64,000 nucleotides of DNA from a bacterium (GCA_021786105.1 JAJYNW010000005.1:32001-96000), one strand, 5' to 3'. Shown: positions 5,572 through 13,678, numbered from the stretch's first letter. Program-made: numbers and translations. Notes: generated by a model not told the origin, from the letters alone.

Positions 5572-6831
5572 ATGGATCCAAATAATAACAATTCTACAGG
5601 TTTTCCGCCGGCTTCGGATCCGTCTGCTTCTTCGCCAACTACCCCGCCAACTCCACCGACCGATATGTCAATGGGAGTGCCTTCTGCACAGCCGAGTGCC
5701 TCATCTCCTCTTCCAGATACATCTGATTTAGGGCCAAGTGCAAGTAGTGGTTTGAGCTCTGGTTTTAGTATGTCGAACCCTGTACCAAATGTTACGCCCG
5801 AACCCGCTCCTAATTTAGAAGGTACTTCCACTACTCCTTTGGGGAGTAATGCTGCATTAGGGGAGGCTCAGCGGGGTGCGGGAGCAGGGGGTGTTCCTTC
5901 TTGGTCAACACCAGGTAGCAGCCCAAGTGCGGTTCCTTCTCAGGATATGTCTGCCTCTGCGGCTCCGGCTTTTGGAAGTATGGATACTACTCCTAGTGAG
6001 GCGCCTGTGAATCCTATGGCTGCCGGTACTGATTCTTCCGCCCCTTCGGGAGCGGCTCCCGGTGGATTTTCCATCGCTGATTTAGCTAGCGGTCCCGGAA
6101 CAAGTTCTACTTCGGGGTTAGACGGTTTTTCAGGAGGCACACCTCCTTTATCATCAACAGATGCTAGTGTTAGCGCACCTTCGGTTTCCCCTGCCCCAGC
6201 AGATACCGTTTCTGCAAGCCCATTGGGAGGTTCCGGCAATTCTGAAACGGCACCTGCCAATCCCTTTATGGGGGGTTCACAGCCATCAATGTCTGAAACT
6301 ACCGCTGCTCCAAACGGTGGGAGTGGTGCAGAAACTGGAGCCAGTGCGTCGGGACCGGTGGAATCTGCGCCGACAGATTTAAGCCATCTTGTGAGCGGCG
6401 CTTCCGGTGAACAATCAGCTACATCTTCAACAATCCCCCAACCGGAAACATTAGTTGTTGCCCCATCAGCTGCACCGGCTGCTTCGGATGCCCAGGTTGT
6501 TTCCGGCGGTGGAAAAAGTTTTCCTAAGTGGATTTTAGCTGTAGCGTTTGTTGTTGTATTGGCGGTAATTGGTGCTAGCGCTTACTTTATTTTAGGTGTG
6601 GGTAAGCCGGAAGCCCCGACAACATCAGTTCCTGCTGTTCAGGCTCCCTTAACGAAGCCTCCTAAAACAGTATTACCAAGTGTTTCTCCGACTCAAGCCC
6701 CTGCTTCCGGATCTGCGACTTTTGGAAGTTTGGAGGGCACGGCTCCCGTATCTTCAAGTGGGTCGGCTGCCCAAAATGGGCCTTCGGCTTTGGAACTATT
6801 GAGGAAGCGTCAGGTTTCTCCTACTCCCTAA
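5572..6831 (+). CDS. Low-complexity Pro/Ser/Ala/Gly-rich single-pass membrane protein, unknown function
   Basis: About 315 aa of disordered-looking N-terminus, one hydrophobic helix (WILAVAFVVVLAVIGASAYFILGV), then a P/S/T-rich tail. Confidence 0.75.
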   Translation: MDPNNNNSTGFPPASDPSASSPTTPPTPPTDMSMGVPSAQPSASSPLPDTSDLGPSASSGLSSGFSMSNPVPNVTPEPAPNLEGTSTTPLGSNAALGEAQRGAGAGGVPSWSTPGSSPSAVPSQDMSASAAPAFGSMDTTPSEAPVNPMAAGTDSSAPSGAAPGGFSIADLASGPGTSSTSGLDGFSGGTPPLSSTDASVSAPSVSPAPADTVSASPLGGSGNSETAPANPFMGGSQPSMSETTAAPNGGSGAETGASASGPVESAPTDLSHLVSGASGEQSATSSTIPQPETLVVAPSAAPAASDAQVVSGGGKSFPKWILAVAFVVVLAVIGASAYFILGVGKPEAPTTSVPAVQAPLTKPPKTVLPSVSPTQAPASGSATFGSLEGTAPVSSSGSAAQNGPSALELLRKRQVSPTP

Positions 6832-7264: not shown

Positions 7265-7999
7265 CTAATCCGGTTTCTTTTTAACAACAAAGGTAAAGAG
7301 GAGGACTCCGGAAAGGATGAAAGCAAGACCCCCTCCAATAATGGACATTTTTTGGATGGGGGAACCTTGAGCTTGGGGTTTAGGGGAAGATGTGGGTGTC
7401 AGGGTAACAGTAGCTGAACTTGTGCCCAAGATAGAAGAAGGGAGGTTGGTGCTGGAAGTGTACAACTTTACCTCTTTTTTAGTTGTAGGGTGGGGAGTTG
7501 GTGTAAGTGTAGGTAATCTAGTAGGGGTAGGAGTTTTAGTTGGGGTGGGGGTGTGAGAAGGAGTAGGAGTATTGGTAGGGCCAGGTGTGGGGGTTGAGGT
7601 TGGGGTAGGAGTGGCAGTTGGTGTTGGGGTGGGGGAAGGGGCTACTAAGTTAAAGTTCCAAGTTGAGCTCCAGTCGCTCCATGTTCCAGATGAATCCTTG
7701 GCTTTTACTCTCCAATACCAGGTTCCTTCTGATAAACCTGATGGTGTATAAGATGCATTGTTAGGATCGTAATCTTTGTCAATGGATGCAAAAGTCTGAT
7801 CGTCATCTACCTGGACGCGATAGTGATCACCGGAATAAAGGGTATAAGTTGGCACCTCCCAAGCCATGGTGGTAGTGGTAACACTAGAGCCGTTTTCAGG
7901 TGAGGTTTGAGTTGGAGCATCAGTGGCGAAAGCAGGCAGGGTTACGATAAAAAAGCTGAAAGATATCAATGAAGTCAGGAGAATAATTATTACCTTCAC
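7265..7999 (-). CDS. Secreted/surface protein: Fn3/Ig-like domain, Pro-Thr stalk, C-terminal TM anchor
   Basis: Signal peptide; YRVQVDDD...GTWYWRVKAKD...WSDWS Fn3-like motif; (PT)n run; C-terminal hydrophobic helix followed by KKK. Confidence 0.8.
   Translation of the reverse strand: MKVIIILLTSLISFSFFIVTLPAFATDAPTQTSPENGSSVTTTTMAWEVPTYTLYSGDHYRVQVDDDQTFASIDKDYDPNNASYTPSGLSEGTWYWRVKAKDSSGTWSDWSSTWNFNLVAPSPTPTPTATPTPTSTPTPGPTNTPTPSHTPTPTKTPTPTRLPTLTPTPHPTTKKEVKLYTSSTNLPSSILGTSSATVTLTPTSSPKPQAQGSPIQKMSIIGGGLAFILSGVLLFTFVVKKKPD
7490..7640 (-). repeat. Degenerate coding (Pro-Thr)n repeat
   Basis: PSPTPTPTATPTPTSTPTPGPTNTPTPSHTPTPTKTPTPT; G/T-rich on the + strand. Confidence 0.85.
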
Positions 8000-8040: not shown

Positions 8041-9258
8041 TTATGGGATATGCCAGTATAAAGTGACGTAGCCGTTGCCGTGATCGATGGCAATGCCTTT
8101 CCCGACAGTTCCTGTTAAATAGCAGGCGGACGAGTCACGGAATTCATAGGCTGTTCCGTCCGCCACCGCTTTTATGGGCGCTCCGAAATAATCTACAATA
8201 TCCAATCCTGTATGATAGCTGCCTCCCAAAATGTTATACCAGATCGGAAACCGGGTCGAAATATCACCGTTATGGCAATAATCTGCCTGGCTGCAATCGC
8301 CGGCAGGATATTCAGCTAACGGACTGCCAAAAAATCCGGAATCAAGTAACGGTTTAGGATCAACGAGATTTTCTTTACCGATGATTGAATTATTCTCAAT
8401 ATGGGCTGGGGTCATCACCTGAAAATGGAGATGGGCTCCGGTGGTGCAGCCACTCATACCCACGGAAGCTATAATCTCACCCTTCTTCACTGGTCCGACT
8501 TTGGCTCCAAAACCTCCTAAAGCACGGGAAATAGAGTTGGCATCCGCCTGCAACTGCGCAATTAATGACTGGTATTTAGCTTCATTATTTTGGGTAACCC
8601 GTAAAAGGTCATCCTTAGCTTTTTTCTGGTCTGCAAGCTGGGCTTGGTAAGTTACCAAATCCTTCTTTAGCTTTTCCTCCTGGGCCTGTCTGGTTTCTTT
8701 ATCCGTCTTTTGGTCATGGTAGGCAGCTTTAGTTGCTTGAAGCTGGTAGAGAACTTTCTTGTCGTTCTCCTGGGCAACCTGGATATATTTCATCCTTTCC
8801 AACAGGTCGGCAAAACCGTTGGAGGAGAAGAAGAGATCTATGGGGGAATAATCCCCATATTTATATGTTTGGACTATCCGGTTAAGAAGGATTTGGGCAA
8901 TGCTGTCAACGCTGCTGGAAAGCTTGGTAATTCTTCCGGAAAGGTCAGTAATTTCCTTGTCTAATTTTGCAATTTGGGCATTGGCTTCATCCATCTTTAG
9001 TTGGGTGAATTTGGTTTGGGCATCAATGTAATTGAGTTGGGATTTAAGGGTTTTTTCCTTACTTTGTTCACCATTTAATAACTGCTGACATTGGGCCGTT
9101 AATCCGGCAATACACGCATATCTGTTGCCGGGGTCAGGATCTATGCATTGTGAACTATCTCCGCAGGAAACTTGGGCGAAGGCTGGATTAGCACTAAAGA
9201 AGGCGGTTAAAAGCAGAGGAATTATTAAGAGATGACGAATTTTAGGGGAGACTACCAT
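8041..9258 (-). CDS. PcsB/CwlO/EnvC-type coiled-coil protein with a circularly permuted M23 metallopeptidase domain
   Basis: Signal peptide and long coiled-coil. The HLH motif (GAHLHFQV) precedes HxxxD (HTGLD), and the protein ends at TLYWHIP. Confidence 0.85.
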   Translation of the reverse strand: MVVSPKIRHLLIIPLLLTAFFSANPAFAQVSCGDSSQCIDPDPGNRYACIAGLTAQCQQLLNGEQSKEKTLKSQLNYIDAQTKFTQLKMDEANAQIAKLDKEITDLSGRITKLSSSVDSIAQILLNRIVQTYKYGDYSPIDLFFSSNGFADLLERMKYIQVAQENDKKVLYQLQATKAAYHDQKTDKETRQAQEEKLKKDLVTYQAQLADQKKAKDDLLRVTQNNEAKYQSLIAQLQADANSISRALGGFGAKVGPVKKGEIIASVGMSGCTTGAHLHFQVMTPAHIENNSIIGKENLVDPKPLLDSGFFGSPLAEYPAGDCSQADYCHNGDISTRFPIWYNILGGSYHTGLDIVDYFGAPIKAVADGTAYEFRDSSACYLTGTVGKGIAIDHGNGYVTLYWHIP

Positions 9259-10056
9259 GTCTTAATAAGTAATGATTTCAGTAATGTAGTTTCCGGAATA
9301 GTTACTCTTAAAGGAAACGTTAGGACCTTTCCAAGGATCAAGTAAATTATAATCATCACCATTTTTGGAGGTGACAACTACAAAATGGAATGGTTGGGCA
9401 TAAGTACTTGAAGTATACCCAATTCCCACAATTGCCCATTTGCCGGCGCTTAAGGCGTTATCCAGTGTTGAAGTGTTGGTTGTCCGGGAGGGGGAATTAA
9501 AGCCTAAAGAGGTTAGGGCAGACCACAAAAAGTCTCCGTCAAAGAAATAGGAATCGTTGCTGCCGATAGTGGCTGGGGTTTGGGAATTGCCGCGGTGGGT
9601 TAAAACCATAGCTACCGAAGAAACCAGACAACCGGCTAGACCAATAGAGTACCGGCTGTTGCCGATAGCCATATTTCCCCATCGGACATCACGTTGGGAA
9701 AAATAACCTGCCGGCCAAGAGGGATCGGCGTTGATTAAGGTTAAGCCTCCCTGACTCTGAACGAATGACCGGAAGGCAGCCAGCTGGGCTTCTGCTTGGG
9801 CAATCAATTTTTCGTAATTAGACTCATCACCCTGGGTTGCTGCCAATAACTGTTGTTTAGCCTTTTTCTGGTCAGCCAGTTGGGTTTGGTATACCACCAA
9901 ATCTTTCTTTAGCTTTTCCTCCTGGGCCTGTCTTGTTTCCTTGTCCGTTTTTTGGTCATGGTAGGCAGCTTTGGTGGCCTGAAGCTGGTATAACACTTTT
10001 TTATCATTGGCTTGGGCAACCTGGATATACTTCATTCTTTCCAACAGGTCGGCAAA
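8614..10056 (-). repeat. Duplicated ~200-bp coiled-coil segment (copies at ~8614-8814 and ~9856-10056)
   Basis: 64 of 67 aa identical (FADLLERMKY...LADQKKAK) with many synonymous DNA differences. Confidence 0.9.
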
Positions 10057-10491
10057 ACCATGGGAAGAAAAGATTAAATCTAAGATAGAGGGCTCTCCTT
10101 GCTTGTATGTCTGGGTGATCCGGACCAGCAGTAGTTCGGAGATGCTGTCCACATTGGCAGAGAGCTTGGTAATTCTTCCGGAAAGATCGGTTATTTCTGT
10201 TTCCAGTTTGGTAATCTGATAATTTGTATCGTCGATTTTGGCCTGAGTCAATCTGGTTTGCGCATCGATATAATCAAGCTGGGATTTAAGGGTTTTTTCC
10301 TGGCTTTTGGCTGCACTTAATCGGGATTCACAGTCATCTTTTACTTGTTGGTAACAGCTATGAGGGTCGGAGTCGCTTGCGCAACTATCCCCATCTCCGC
10401 AACTTTTAGCCAATGCAGAGGTTGGGGTAAAAATGAGAAGCATTAAAAAAGAGGTCACAACAACCAAGACAGAAATTCTCATACATGGCAT
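9262..10491 (-). CDS. PcsB/CwlO-type coiled-coil protein with a C39-like (papain-fold) peptidase domain
   Basis: Signal peptide, coiled-coil, YFSQRDVRWG...AGCLVSSVAMVL...HFVVV...LLDPW (Cys/His/Asp). Start may be a few codons inside the ORF. Confidence 0.8.
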   Translation of the reverse strand: MPCMRISVLVVVTSFLMLLIFTPTSALAKSCGDGDSCASDSDPHSCYQQVKDDCESRLSAAKSQEKTLKSQLDYIDAQTRLTQAKIDDTNYQITKLETEITDLSGRITKLSANVDSISELLLVRITQTYKQGEPSILDLIFSSHGFADLLERMKYIQVAQANDKKVLYQLQATKAAYHDQKTDKETRQAQEEKLKKDLVVYQTQLADQKKAKQQLLAATQGDESNYEKLIAQAEAQLAAFRSFVQSQGGLTLINADPSWPAGYFSQRDVRWGNMAIGNSRYSIGLAGCLVSSVAMVLTHRGNSQTPATIGSNDSYFFDGDFLWSALTSLGFNSPSRTTNTSTLDNALSAGKWAIVGIGYTSSTYAQPFHFVVVTSKNGDDYNLLDPWKGPNVSFKSNYSGNYITEIITY

Positions 10492-11366
10492 TAAATTCTC
10501 AGGTAGCGGCGAACAGCCACAAAGGCTCCGACTCCGCCCACAAGTATTGCTACAACTACTTCGACGCCCAGAAGTCCTAGTAATAATACCGGAGAGAGTG
10601 CAAAGAATTGTCCAGCGGCTTCTCCTAAATTATTCCGCAAGACCGGTTCGAAATACCATAAAACTGCAAATGAGGTAATCCATCCTAAAAAGGCCCCAAT
10701 TAAGGCATAAACCACACCTTCCGTAATATAGGGAATACGGATAAACCAGGTGGAGGCGCCTAGAAGTTTCATGATTTCAATCTCGCTTCTTTTGATCCTG
10801 ATCTTAAAACCCACCACCATAACAATGATTAGAGTAGAGAAGGTAATTAAAAATCCCACAACTGCGCTACCGACAACCCTGATTAATCTTGTTGCTGATA
10901 CTAAAGAAGAGACGACATCTTCCGGAAAGACAACCTCCTCCACCACCGGTTCTTTCTTGACGATTTCGGCTACAGGTTTTAGATCCTCTGGGGTTTGGGT
11001 GGAAATCTCCAGGGAAGCAGGTAAGATATTGGCAGTTACCAATTCGAGCAACATGGGGTTATTTTTATTGCGTTCCCTATATATTTGCAAAGCATCATCT
11101 TTAGAAACAAATTTTAATTTAGTGACTTTACCGGTTTGGTTTAATGCGCCTTCGATTGCGTTTACATCTTGGTCAGTGGTACCATCTTTAAAGAAAGCAA
11201 TTGCCTGGGGTTTGCTCTCATAATACCTGAGGATTTGCTGGGAACAGATGGCCAAAAGTAAAAATCCGGAAAGAGTTAAGAAAGTTAAGAACATCACCAT
11301 GGAAGCAGCGAGTGCCTGGTAAGGTGTTCTCCTAATATTCTTTTTTACTGTGTTAAATAAATTCAT
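10491..11366 (-). CDS. ftsX: Cell division permease-like protein FtsX
   Basis: 1+3 TM layout, SKDDAL...LPASLEI, RSEIEIMKLLGASTWFIRIPYITEG; follows ftsE. Confidence 0.93.
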   Translation of the reverse strand: MNLFNTVKKNIRRTPYQALAASMVMFLTFLTLSGFLLLAICSQQILRYYESKPQAIAFFKDGTTDQDVNAIEGALNQTGKVTKLKFVSKDDALQIYRERNKNNPMLLELVTANILPASLEISTQTPEDLKPVAEIVKKEPVVEEVVFPEDVVSSLVSATRLIRVVGSAVVGFLITFSTLIIVMVVGFKIRIKRSEIEIMKLLGASTWFIRIPYITEGVVYALIGAFLGWITSFAVLWYFEPVLRNNLGEAAGQFFALSPVLLLGLLGVEVVVAILVGGVGAFVAVRRYLRI

Positions 11367-11382: not shown

Positions 11383-11434
11383 TTTTGACTTCGTCAAAAC
11401 GATCCTGTTGAAAATAGTTTACAACTATTTTCAA
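11383..11434. other. Two perfect triloop hairpins in the ftsE-ftsX spacer
   Basis: ttttgac-ttc-gtcaaaa (11383-11399) and ttgaaaatagtt-tac-aactattttcaa (11408-11434, 12-bp stem). Confidence 0.7.
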
Positions 11435-12114
11435 TGAAACTCGTATTTTCCTTCTGTTTTGTCTTTGGTTACTTTGCCGTTTTTAATGGCAATGACCCGG
11501 CGTTTTTGCATATCAACAATTTCTTTATTGTGGGTGGCCATGACTACAGTTGTTCCCCATGAGTTGATCTCATTTAAAAGTTGCAGCACGGACCAGGATG
11601 TTTGTGGATCCAAGTTTCCAGTTGGTTCATCAGCAATTAATACTTTGGGTTTGCCGATAATTGCCCGGGCAATAGCTACCCGTTGGGCTTCGCCTCCGGA
11701 AAGCTGGCGGGGAAAAAGGTTCCGCCTGTCCCAGATTTCAAAAAGTTTAAGGGTCCGCTCAACTTCTTTATGAATCTCAGCTTCCGGGGTGTTTCTGACC
11801 TGTAAAGCCAAGGCCACATTTTCAAAAACAGTTTTGTCATCCAATAGTTTATTGTCCTGAAAGACAAAACCAATTTTTCTCCGGTACTCGGGAATGTCCT
11901 GCGGCTTTATTTTGGTGATATCAACATCATCTAGGAGGATTTTGCCTGAATTGGGCAGGTATTCCCTGGTTAAAAGCCTGAGTAAAGTAGATTTCCCGGC
12001 ACCCGAAGGTCCAACAACAAAAACAAATTCCCCGTTTTTAATCTCTAGATTAATATCCTCAAGGGCAGTAATTGATGAGCTAAATTTTTTAGAGACATTT
12101 TGAAAAGAGATCAT
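11431..12114 (-). CDS. ftsE: Cell division ATP-binding protein FtsE
   Basis: GPSGAGKST, VFQD, LSGGEAQR, ADEPTGNLDP, GTTVVMATH. Confidence 0.95.
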   Translation of the reverse strand: MISFQNVSKKFSSSITALEDINLEIKNGEFVFVVGPSGAGKSTLLRLLTREYLPNSGKILLDDVDITKIKPQDIPEYRRKIGFVFQDNKLLDDKTVFENVALALQVRNTPEAEIHKEVERTLKLFEIWDRRNLFPRQLSGGEAQRVAIARAIIGKPKVLIADEPTGNLDPQTSWSVLQLLNEINSWGTTVVMATHNKEIVDMQKRRVIAIKNGKVTKDKTEGKYEFH

Positions 12115-12120
12115 CGAGCT

Positions 12121-12552
12121 TCATTTAACTTCTACTTTACCCACATCCATCAGCCAACCTTCTTTAATGGCTTTTTGTGTTTCCCCAAAAACCTTAACCT
12201 TTTTACCTTCGTATTGGCTTAAATCAACTACGGATGAAGTAAGGGCTACAGGCACAGCTCCGTCCCGAATTAGTAAATGTGTGCCTTCACTGTAATCATC
12301 CCCCTTTGAATCATCTTTTTTCTGGATTGTGCCTTCAGCAAAATCTCGGAAGGTGCGGTTGTCTTGTTGGGCTGTTTTGGCAACTTGGGTTGTTGCTGCC
12401 GTAGAAGAAGCAGCTTTTCCTTTTGCGGAACCTGCAAAAAGATATCCGGATGCGGCGCCTAAAACAACAGAAAGAACGAGAATAGAGATAAAAATCTTGT
12501 TTAAGCTGAAGTTACTCAAAGTTTTGAGAGGCAAAGTGACAGGGTTTTGCAT
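12121..12552 (-). CDS. Membrane-anchored hypothetical protein with a small beta-rich (OB-like) domain
   Basis: N-terminal TM, A/T linker, EGTHLL...DLSQYEGKKVKVFG...LMDVGKVE; ends 6 nt before ftsE. Confidence 0.7.
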   Translation of the reverse strand: MQNPVTLPLKTLSNFSLNKIFISILVLSVVLGAASGYLFAGSAKGKAASSTAATTQVAKTAQQDNRTFRDFAEGTIQKKDDSKGDDYSEGTHLLIRDGAVPVALTSSVVDLSQYEGKKVKVFGETQKAIKEGWLMDVGKVEVK

Positions 12553-12601: not shown

Positions 12602-13678
12602 TTATTTCCCAAAGCTGCGAAGTTCCGATTCGATAAATTGGTCCAAGTCGCCGTCCAAAACTGCATCCGTATCGGAAGTTTCTGCTTCTGTTCTTAAGTC
12701 TTTAACCATATGATAAGGATGCAAGACATAAGAACGGATCTGGGTTCCCCAGGAAGCCTGGGTTTTCCCGCCTTTTAATTCAGCTTCAGTTTTCTTTTCT
12801 TCTTCTTGTTTCCTTGCCCAAAGTTTAGCCCGAAGGAGAGCCATGGCGTTTTCCCGGTTTTGCAGCTGTGACCGTTCAGTTTGGCAGGTAACCACAATAC
12901 CTGTAGGGATATGCTTTAACCTCACCGCAGTATTTACCTTGTTAACATTTTGGCCTCCGGCACCCCCAGATCTAAAGGCTTCAAACTCAATCTCGTCCGG
13001 CTTGATTTCAACCTCGGTCTCGTTTTCGATAACCGGCAGGACTTCCACTAAGGCAAAGGAAGTTTGACGAAGGTTATCAGCATTGAAAGGGGACTGGCGG
13101 ACTAGGCGGTGTGTTCCGGCTTCACCTTTGAGATAGCCATAGGCATATGATGCATGCACAATCATTGAGATGGACTTATAACCTGCTTCCTCCCCGAAAC
13201 TTTCATCAGTGATTTCGTATTTCCAGCCCTTACGCTCAAAATAGCGCTGGTACATCCGGGCAAGCATTGCGGCCCAATCCATCGCTTCGACCCCACCAGC
13301 TCCTGCATGAACTGATAAGATTGCTTCTGATTCATCATGGGGACCGGAAAGGAAAAGCCGAAGTTCGAGGTTATCCAGAAACTCCTCAATTTCATTTGCT
13401 TCCTTTTCTAAATCCTGCTGCATCTCTGATTCGTTGGATAACTCCACTGCATTATTAATTCTGTTTTCCAGTTCGTCCAACGCTCCGAGAAGCTTTTGCT
13501 TTTCCGAAAGATCCTGGGAGACTTTACGGGCGGTTTCCTGGTCATTCCAAAAATCAGAGTGGTTCATCTGGGCTTCCAGTTCACGGATTTCGGCACGTAT
13601 TTTATCCCGGTCAAATTGACAGACAACTTTAGTAAACCTTTCCTTTAGATCATTTAGTTTTTTCTGCAGCTCTTCCAT
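12602..13678 (-). CDS. prfB: Peptide chain release factor 2 (single reading frame)
   Basis: SPF anticodon-mimic motif (RQSPFN), GGQ, HAGAGG. Confidence 0.96.

Follow-up and report, generated by a model that had tools for sequence, protein, structure and literature searches.

A circularly permuted M23 peptidase domain in an FtsEX-linked coiled-coil protein of Microgenomates-type Patescibacteria

The window analysed here is a stretch of 64,000 nucleotides (nt) of bacterial DNA (GCA_021786105.1 JAJYNW010000005.1:32001-96000, with positions counted from its first letter), and the subject of this work is a gene on its minus strand, at 8041..9258, whose open reading frame (ORF) of 405 amino acids (aa) encodes, as judged from its translation and from Pfam, a signal peptide, a coiled coil and an M23 domain whose halves stand in reversed order. 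The gene belongs to a tightly packed row on that strand, which runs in the order prfB (12602-13678), orf143 (a conserved ORF of 143 aa between prfB and ftsE, 12121-12552), ftsE (11431..12114), ftsX (10491..11366), a coiled-coil paralogue whose C-terminal domain is weakly C39-like (9262..10491) and finally the permuted M23 gene itself. The ftsE gene encodes an ATP (adenosine triphosphate)-binding cassette ATPase (PF00005, E-value (E) 1e-38) and is syntenic with ftsX in related loci; FtsX is recognised by both PF18075 (FtsX_ECD, E 9.3e-17) and PF02687 (E 7.4e-12).

Residues 1-28 of the protein (9175..9258, minus strand, as for all parts of the gene) form a probable Sec signal peptide, recognised by eye in the translation from a hydrophobic core and an AxA site; it ends in A-F-A and is followed by a short segment with four Cys. 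Next comes a coiled coil of the EnvC/PcsB type (residues ~58-247, 8518..9087), assigned from its collinearity with a canonical orthologue and from weak profile matches: 24.9 bits to PF24568 (CC_PcsB) over residues 110-180 (E 1.8e-5; cut-off 27), 33.2 bits to the NCBIfam EnvC model (NF008644) over residues 61-240 (cut-off 270) and 32.2 bits to the NCBIfam PcsB model over residues 62-244 (cut-off 450). Residues 120-170 (8749..8901), at the tip of the hairpin, are the predicted site for two FtsX extracellular domains, taken from the interface residues of a complex model. The M23 domain is C-terminal and comprises 166 aa (8044-8541); a preliminary description of this DNA had placed it at 8041-8500, a range that does hold residues 253-405 and the stop codon (8041-8043), while the whole domain extends to 8541. 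Within it, the part corresponding to the native C-half now comes first (residues 256-305, 8344..8493, delimited by PF01551 positions 62-89 and alignments with Protein Data Bank (PDB) sequences) and contains C271 and the HxH residues H276 and H278. The join of the two old termini (residues 306-328, 8275..8343, from a 24-row alignment and BLASTP against a canonical orthologue) contains the pair C322/C328. The part corresponding to the native N-half is now last (residues 329-405, 8044..8274; PF01551 positions 2-52 and positions 13-84 of a hidden Markov model (HMM) of canonical domains) and contains H349, D353, C379 and H403. (In domain numbering, H37/H39 are H276/H278, H110/D114 are H349/D353, H164 is H403, C32/C140 are C271/C379 and C83/C89 are C322/C328.)

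The motifs HxxxD and HxH and an extra His are known from the LytM literature as the zinc ligands and catalytic His. The native domain does not have the collinear M23 order of HxxxD, His after Tyr, HxH. Instead, HxH (H276/H278) is followed by HxxxD (H349/D353) and then by a final Y-W-H (H403), and the chain ends two residues after H403, with the stop codon next. PF01551 scores a total of 57.6 bits, above its cut-off of 28.7, and does so over two stretches: residues 256-283 match profile positions 62-89 of 96 (E 1.5e-6, 28.7 bits) and residues 348-404 match positions 2-52 of 96 (E 6.9e-9, 36.2 bits). Two partial matches in reversed order, each far beyond chance, are what the preliminary description had predicted for this domain; a single collinear full-length PF01551 match, which it had named as the observation that would speak against a rotation, is not seen in the native protein.

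Other comparisons give the same picture. In a phmmer search of PDB sequences, the alignment with 9gy1_A is crossed, in that domain residues 97-165 match chain residues 29-91 and domain residues 11-43 match chain residues 94-127; thus, the break lies in a short loop just after the Y-x-H strand, and nothing is missing. An HMM of 138 positions, built from 65 canonical M23 domains, gives two partial, reversed matches to the native domain, and it matches a doubled copy of the domain in a single collinear run over HMM positions 13-130 of 138 (101.8 bits), which at the level of sequence is the standard signature of circular permutation. The old C-terminus, VDPKP-L-L, passes straight into the old N-terminus, DSG-FF-G-SPL, which lines up with the beginning of the canonical orthologue's M23 domain. 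Taken together, the PF01551 pieces, the PDB alignments and the doubling test agree that the two halves are rotated, and they bear out the earlier account of how this is arranged: the native C-terminus is joined to the native N-terminus via DSG, and the chain is reopened just after the His of Y.H, the break falling two residues past H403. On these sequence comparisons, the reversed M23 order is confirmed and the domain is judged to be a genuine circular permutant. (A search of the ESM Atlas with the domain added only the label 'M23 family'.)

The structure predicted for the domain is in keeping with this assignment. An AlphaFold2 model made with a 61-row alignment is a single compact domain with a mean predicted local distance difference test score (pLDDT) of 93.7 and a predicted template modelling score (pTM) of 0.90; the three-dimensional evidence used here consists of such confidence scores and of secondary structure. 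When the DSSP states of this model and of an independently modelled canonical orthologue are both mapped onto the canonical HMM, 90 of 108 homologous positions agree in the rotated order, versus 36-50 of 108 for shifted controls, and the order is broken only once, where domain residue 165 is followed by residue 17 (canonical residues 81 and 91). On this reading, both halves would pack into a single M23 fold around one zinc site. A Foldseek search of the permuted model against the PDB returned 0 matches at E ≤ 1e-3 among at least 500 counted, the best having E 0.41 and a template modelling (TM) score of 0.1-0.2. As a control, the model of a collinear M23 domain from a canonical orthologue (L104, pLDDT 83.0) returned 66 PDB matches at E ≤ 1e-3, which include ShyA, DipM, LytM and EnvC at TM 0.7-0.79. 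Because the canonical control works, the Foldseek null is attributed to the limit of order-dependent alignment on a permuted topology and is counted neither for nor against the fold. That a structure search of this kind misses the permutant (0 versus 66 PDB matches) is a caution for automated annotation, and the permutation explains why these proteins have received generic annotation only.

The preliminary description had also suggested that extra Cys residues might staple the halves together, and this idea gains indirect support from co-occurrence. Of 177 permuted sequences, 143 have Cys at the positions of both C271 and C379, with C379 never present unless C271 is, and the pair C322 and C328 is complete in 111 of the 177 and wholly absent in 51. 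Such co-variation fits, but does not prove, one putative disulfide across the halves and another within the join.

The relationship to canonical proteins is seen most directly in two other genomes of the phylum, where a gene just after ftsX encodes a coiled coil followed by one collinear PF01551 match covering positions 2-96 of 96 (L104 and L105). These canonical proteins share with the permuted one their position after ftsE-ftsX and a homologous, collinear coiled coil (E 1e-27 for L104 and 7e-16 for L105), and differ from it in having a single collinear M23 domain, with a linker some 28 residues long at the place that the C-half takes in the permuted protein. In particular, BLASTP of the permuted protein against L104 (E 1e-27) finds the coiled coil and the N-half collinear: residues 306-404 align to L104 residues 278-360, and residues 246-305 stand opposite that linker. 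The L104 C-terminus (residues 365-402) is where the C-half (residues 257-281) finds its match. Permuted and canonical proteins also have in common an additional N-half stretch (D-S-G-G... before I-D-H-G-N-G). The L104 alignment thus indicates that the permuted protein is a derived FtsEX partner in which the last third of the M23 domain has moved to the junction between coil and domain. Its most likely origin would be a duplication of M23 in tandem within an ancestor of the canonical coiled-coil M23 type, after which the outer halves were lost, a route that is plausible because tandem M23 proteins exist elsewhere; those with names come from Calditrichota and Bacteroidota, outside the permuted lineage. 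(Proteins classed as 'C-N-C' were considered as half-deleted intermediates and dropped, since one so classed, P0173, is a full tandem by Pfam.)

The permuted form is widespread. A word-indexed search found 306 proteins at E ≤ 1e-3; the best 120 of the 306 cover 99-100% of the domain at 59-99% identity, and the names among the matches, where given, are Candidatus Daviesbacteria or the generic 'DD-metalloendopeptidase' and 'CwlO-like'. When 1.84 billion cluster representatives were searched exhaustively with HMMER, 5,908 matched at E ≤ 1e-3. The top 150 representatives (of 50%-identity clusters) include 46 with the order C-then-N at the protein C-terminus, 65 that are canonical N-then-C and 20 that are tandem N-C-N-C, as sorted by a half-domain classifier at E < 0.01 that is imperfect and mislabels some proteins (P0173 being one). 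A scan of one genome per prokaryotic species, made with a 24-sequence alignment and patterns that include the family's own C-terminal motif, and hence skewed to close relatives, found 210 relatives, of which 80 were kept. Their titles name Daviesbacteria, Curtissbacteria, Levyibacteriota, Microgenomates and Patescibacteria; two are unspecific, and many read 'uncultured Gammaproteobacteria'. The records titled 'uncultured Gammaproteobacteria bacterium' (L001, L005, L007 and many others) have the Patescibacteria-type operon prfB, orf143, ftsE, ftsX, permuted M23, tsaE, on contigs of up to about 0.8 Mb in some cases, and their titles look like placeholder taxonomy. Finally, a hand count over an even sample of 400 further genomes of the phylum gave at least 49 with a match that is collinear and full-span; this is a lower bound because 3 of 7 genomes with only a partial match proved to be permuted when their ORFs were inspected. 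The survey of homologues across Patescibacteria that had been proposed thus finds that the permuted order recurs, and the permutant is fixed in a lineage of Microgenomates type within this phylum.

Both the active-site residues and the break point are kept. Among the 177 permuted sequences, H276, H278, D353 and H403 are each retained in 176 and H349 in 174, so that the earlier claim that HxxxD, HxH and Y.H are all intact holds across the family as well as in the protein itself; among 61 aligned sequences the zinc and catalytic residues are invariant. In at least 167 of the 177 the chain stops exactly two residues past the final His, and distant permuted members have tails of up to six residues after it. 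The same break point in all 177 sequences would fit either one origin or a strong structural constraint. Three permuted homologues (L100-L102, from genomes G113, G067 and G014) are 355-377 aa long and end in L-Y-A/G-H plus two residues.

The link to FtsEX that the preliminary description had drawn is equally evident from gene order. FtsX is encoded upstream on the same strand in 75 of the 80 related loci, and the remaining 5 are cut by contig ends. The permuted gene comes directly after ftsX in 69 of 72 loci, with the C39-like paralogue between them in the other 3, and the adjacency to ftsX is also found in 13 of 13 distant genomes, which had been picked for a full-span match. In a model of the complex, two FtsX extracellular domains are placed on coil residues 120-170 with a score of 0.64, versus 0.28 for the best control; the mark that this score passes is reached by 58 of 80 solved complexes and by 2 of 110 mismatched pairs. 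At least 73% of the contacts are common to the runs, with a pLDDT of at least 78 for the partner. The contacts predicted involve Y96, L115 and P116 of the FtsX extracellular domain (residues about 46-158) and coil residues 125-133 and 157-165. The binding is a prediction, and the pass may reflect mere likeness to solved EnvC-FtsX complexes.

These features invite comparison with EnvC of E. coli and V. cholerae, which is likewise secreted, has an N-terminal antiparallel coiled coil and a C-terminal M23/LytM domain, and is encoded by an ftsEX-linked gene. The account of the solved EnvC-FtsX complex in PMC7668044 gives a 1:2 stoichiometry, with two FtsX extracellular domains on the hairpin, an arrangement that is predicted here. 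As that account presents it, E. coli EnvC is without catalytic residues, activates AmiA/AmiB and is blocked by a restraining arm between the coil and LytM. The EnvC LytM domain is collinear and degenerate, whereas the domain described here is permuted with its catalytic residues intact, and the position of the restraining-arm helix between coil and domain is taken by the M23 C-half. Neither Amidase_3 nor Amidase_2 has a match in this 1.04-Mb, 92%-complete genome, which has three canonical M23 genes besides the permuted one. The marks of EnvC proper, a degenerate LytM domain that activates an Amidase_3 enzyme, are therefore not found: the catalytic residues are intact, and the score against the EnvC model is 33.2 bits versus a cut-off of 270.

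A second comparison is with PcsB of S. pneumoniae, RipC of M. tuberculosis and CwlO of B. subtilis, which PMC11627006, in its treatment of these proteins, describes as FtsEX-coupled coiled-coil proteins that are themselves hydrolases and are autoinhibited until FtsEX acts. They provide the working model proposed here, although their catalytic domains are CHAP or NlpC/P60 cysteine peptidases and not M23; the CC_PcsB match of the coil is weak and under its cut-off. LytM, lysostaphin and ShyA, for their part, share HxxxD, HxH and the extra His, and both of their halves can be aligned with the permuted domain; they differ in motif order and give no collinear sequence match or Foldseek match. A precedent for a natural permutant in another peptidoglycan-hydrolase superfamily is offered by circularly permuted NlpC/P60 families (YaeF/poxvirus G6R and LRAT-like), in which, according to the relevant part of PMC6403190, the catalytic residues swap order; these are papain-like Cys peptidases, unrelated in fold and chemistry and not FtsEX-linked. 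For M23 itself, no description of a permuted domain was found in the full-text literature searched, which leaves supplements and subscription journals outside its scope. The string 'permut' is absent from the main text of a 2022 M23 review (PMC9662197), and the passages of PMC11515920 on the barrel-sandwich 'HABAS' fold place permuted topologies among superfamilies, not within M23.

We consider it probable, at roughly 80%, that the gene encodes an FtsEX-partnered coiled-coil peptidoglycan hydrolase of Microgenomates-type Patescibacteria whose M23 domain is a genuine circular permutant fixed in the lineage. By analogy, the protein would be the counterpart of EnvC, PcsB, RipC and CwlO. Its most likely role, as read from the sequences, would be that of a directly acting, FtsEX-gated endopeptidase, and a direct hydrolase is favoured because the catalytic set is essentially invariant and no amidase family was found. 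In the mechanism proposed, the secreted protein would sit on two FtsX extracellular domains by way of its coiled-coil hairpin, and ATP-driven movement of FtsEX would activate an endopeptidase that cuts cross-links directly, to split the septum or remodel the wall.

Several points weigh against this interpretation. The absence of an amidase is unproven, the genome being only 92% complete, and the activity, the substrate and the gating are deduced from sequence. The CC_PcsB score and the NCBIfam EnvC and PcsB scores are all under their cut-offs. The Foldseek null is expected for a permutant, yet it provides no positive proof of an M23 fold, and that H349, D353, H278, H276 and H403 come together in one site is a prediction from the model's confidence and secondary structure. 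The ftsEX link of the permuted form is not universal, ftsEX being absent within about 5 kb of the permuted homologues L100-L102. Lastly, an FtsEX-linked tandem intermediate was not found among the proteins surveyed, and the origin by duplication and deletion is a reconstruction only.

One might instead suppose that the permuted domain does not itself cleave peptidoglycan and acts as a LytM-type regulator, switching on a different hydrolase. The best-studied FtsEX-bound M23 protein, EnvC, is such an activator in the account of PMC7668044, and here the neighbouring paralogue with its C39-like domain could be the real enzyme. We regard this as unlikely. The EnvC LytM domain is described in the same account as being without catalytic residues, whereas the permuted domain has kept each of them in 174-176 of 177 sequences; the genome has no Amidase_3 or Amidase_2 match; and only 3 of 72 related loci have the paralogue, which is thus not a general partner.

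It is also conceivable, with a somewhat smaller chance still, that the halves complement each other between chains, the permutation enforcing dimerisation through a domain-swapped dimer. Permutants made by duplication can go through swapped forms. In addition, the PcsB crystal is presented in the pertinent section of PMC11627006 as an intertwined, self-inhibited dimer. The monomer model of the permuted domain, however, is predicted with confidence to be compact (pTM 0.90), the join of about 23 residues is conserved and has a co-varying Cys pair, and the EnvC complex of PMC7668044 is one in which a monomer binds FtsX at 1:2. The idea that the arrangement is artefactual, owing to misassembly, to a frameshift or to a tandem-M23 pseudogene in decay, has a negligible chance and was rejected on conservation: apart from the existence of tandem M23 proteins (20 of the 150 best representatives being classed N-C-N-C) no support for it was found, the order, the break point and the C-terminal end recur with intact frames in hundreds of independent assemblies, which effectively excludes the misassembly that the preliminary description had held open, and only 41 nt lie between the stop codon and the next gene, so that there is no remnant of a lost half downstream.

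If the protein is a directly acting hydrolase under FtsEX control, the position of the break bears on how that control might work. In the AlphaFold model, the last helix of the coil (domain residues 2-9) leads through about three residues into the first strand (residues 13-18), and this first strand of the permuted domain is the strand that follows the catalytic-His strand in canonical enzymes. With the coil joined to the first strand and the chain ending after the His, both the tether and the free C-terminus would lie beside the active site. From the model, the new entry point of the coiled coil may change FtsEX control, as the preliminary description had proposed, since movement of the coil would act on the active site more directly than does the separate restraining arm of EnvC. 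A stronger form of this idea is that the permutation is not neutral and is an adaptive rewiring of FtsEX control, in which FtsEX mechanotransmission would open and close the catalytic cleft itself, without a separate autoinhibitory helix; the C-half would sit at the position of the EnvC restraining arm, and the coil helix would be coupled directly to the active-site strands. We hold this adaptive proposal to be possible but doubtful; if true, it would represent a distinct mode of hydrolase gating that is fixed in a large part of Patescibacteria.

M23/LytM domains are among the most studied cell-wall enzymes, and the switching of coiled-coil partners by FtsEX is under active structural study. 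The locus offers a natural experiment on this switching, in that orthologous FtsEX partners at the same locus have either a canonical or a permuted M23 domain, the attachment of the coil shifting from the far N-terminus of the domain to a loop beside the catalytic His. Setting the canonical and permuted forms side by side could reveal the connections on which gating depends. Since these bacteria are uncultured and their genomes tiny, their division hydrolases are of interest for how they divide.

Of the neighbouring genes, the paralogue at 9262..10491 lies between ftsX and the permuted gene. Its coiled coil is 55% identical to that of the permuted protein over residues 10-245 and near-identical around residues 150-200, which overlap the predicted FtsX-binding region; its C-terminal domain has a weak likeness to C39 cysteine peptidases (E 0.027). 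The paralogue, found in the related loci L042, L046 and L049, may be a second, alternative FtsEX partner. It shares with the permuted protein the four-Cys segment that comes after the signal peptide (residues 30-57, about 9088-9171, minus strand); within the 24-row alignment this segment occurs otherwise only in P0003 and P0022, and most family members are without it.

The ORF orf143 occupies the same position in 70 of the 80 related loci, the 10 without it being cut upstream, and it has no family match; it is a conserved member of the prfB-ftsEX operon in this lineage. Searches of the PDB and NCBIfam with orf143, with the C-terminal domain of the paralogue and with the Pro/Thr-rich neighbour described below gave nothing significant. 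This neighbour, directly downstream of the permuted gene on the minus strand (7265-7999), is a secreted protein with a conserved N-terminal domain that has no family match, a long Pro/Thr-rich spacer, a C-terminal hydrophobic anchor and a basic tail, and its N-terminal part is found at the same position in many related loci. Farther along, on the plus strand (5572-6831), lies an ORF of 419 aa and very low complexity that is rich in Ser, Pro, Ala and Thr and has one hydrophobic segment.

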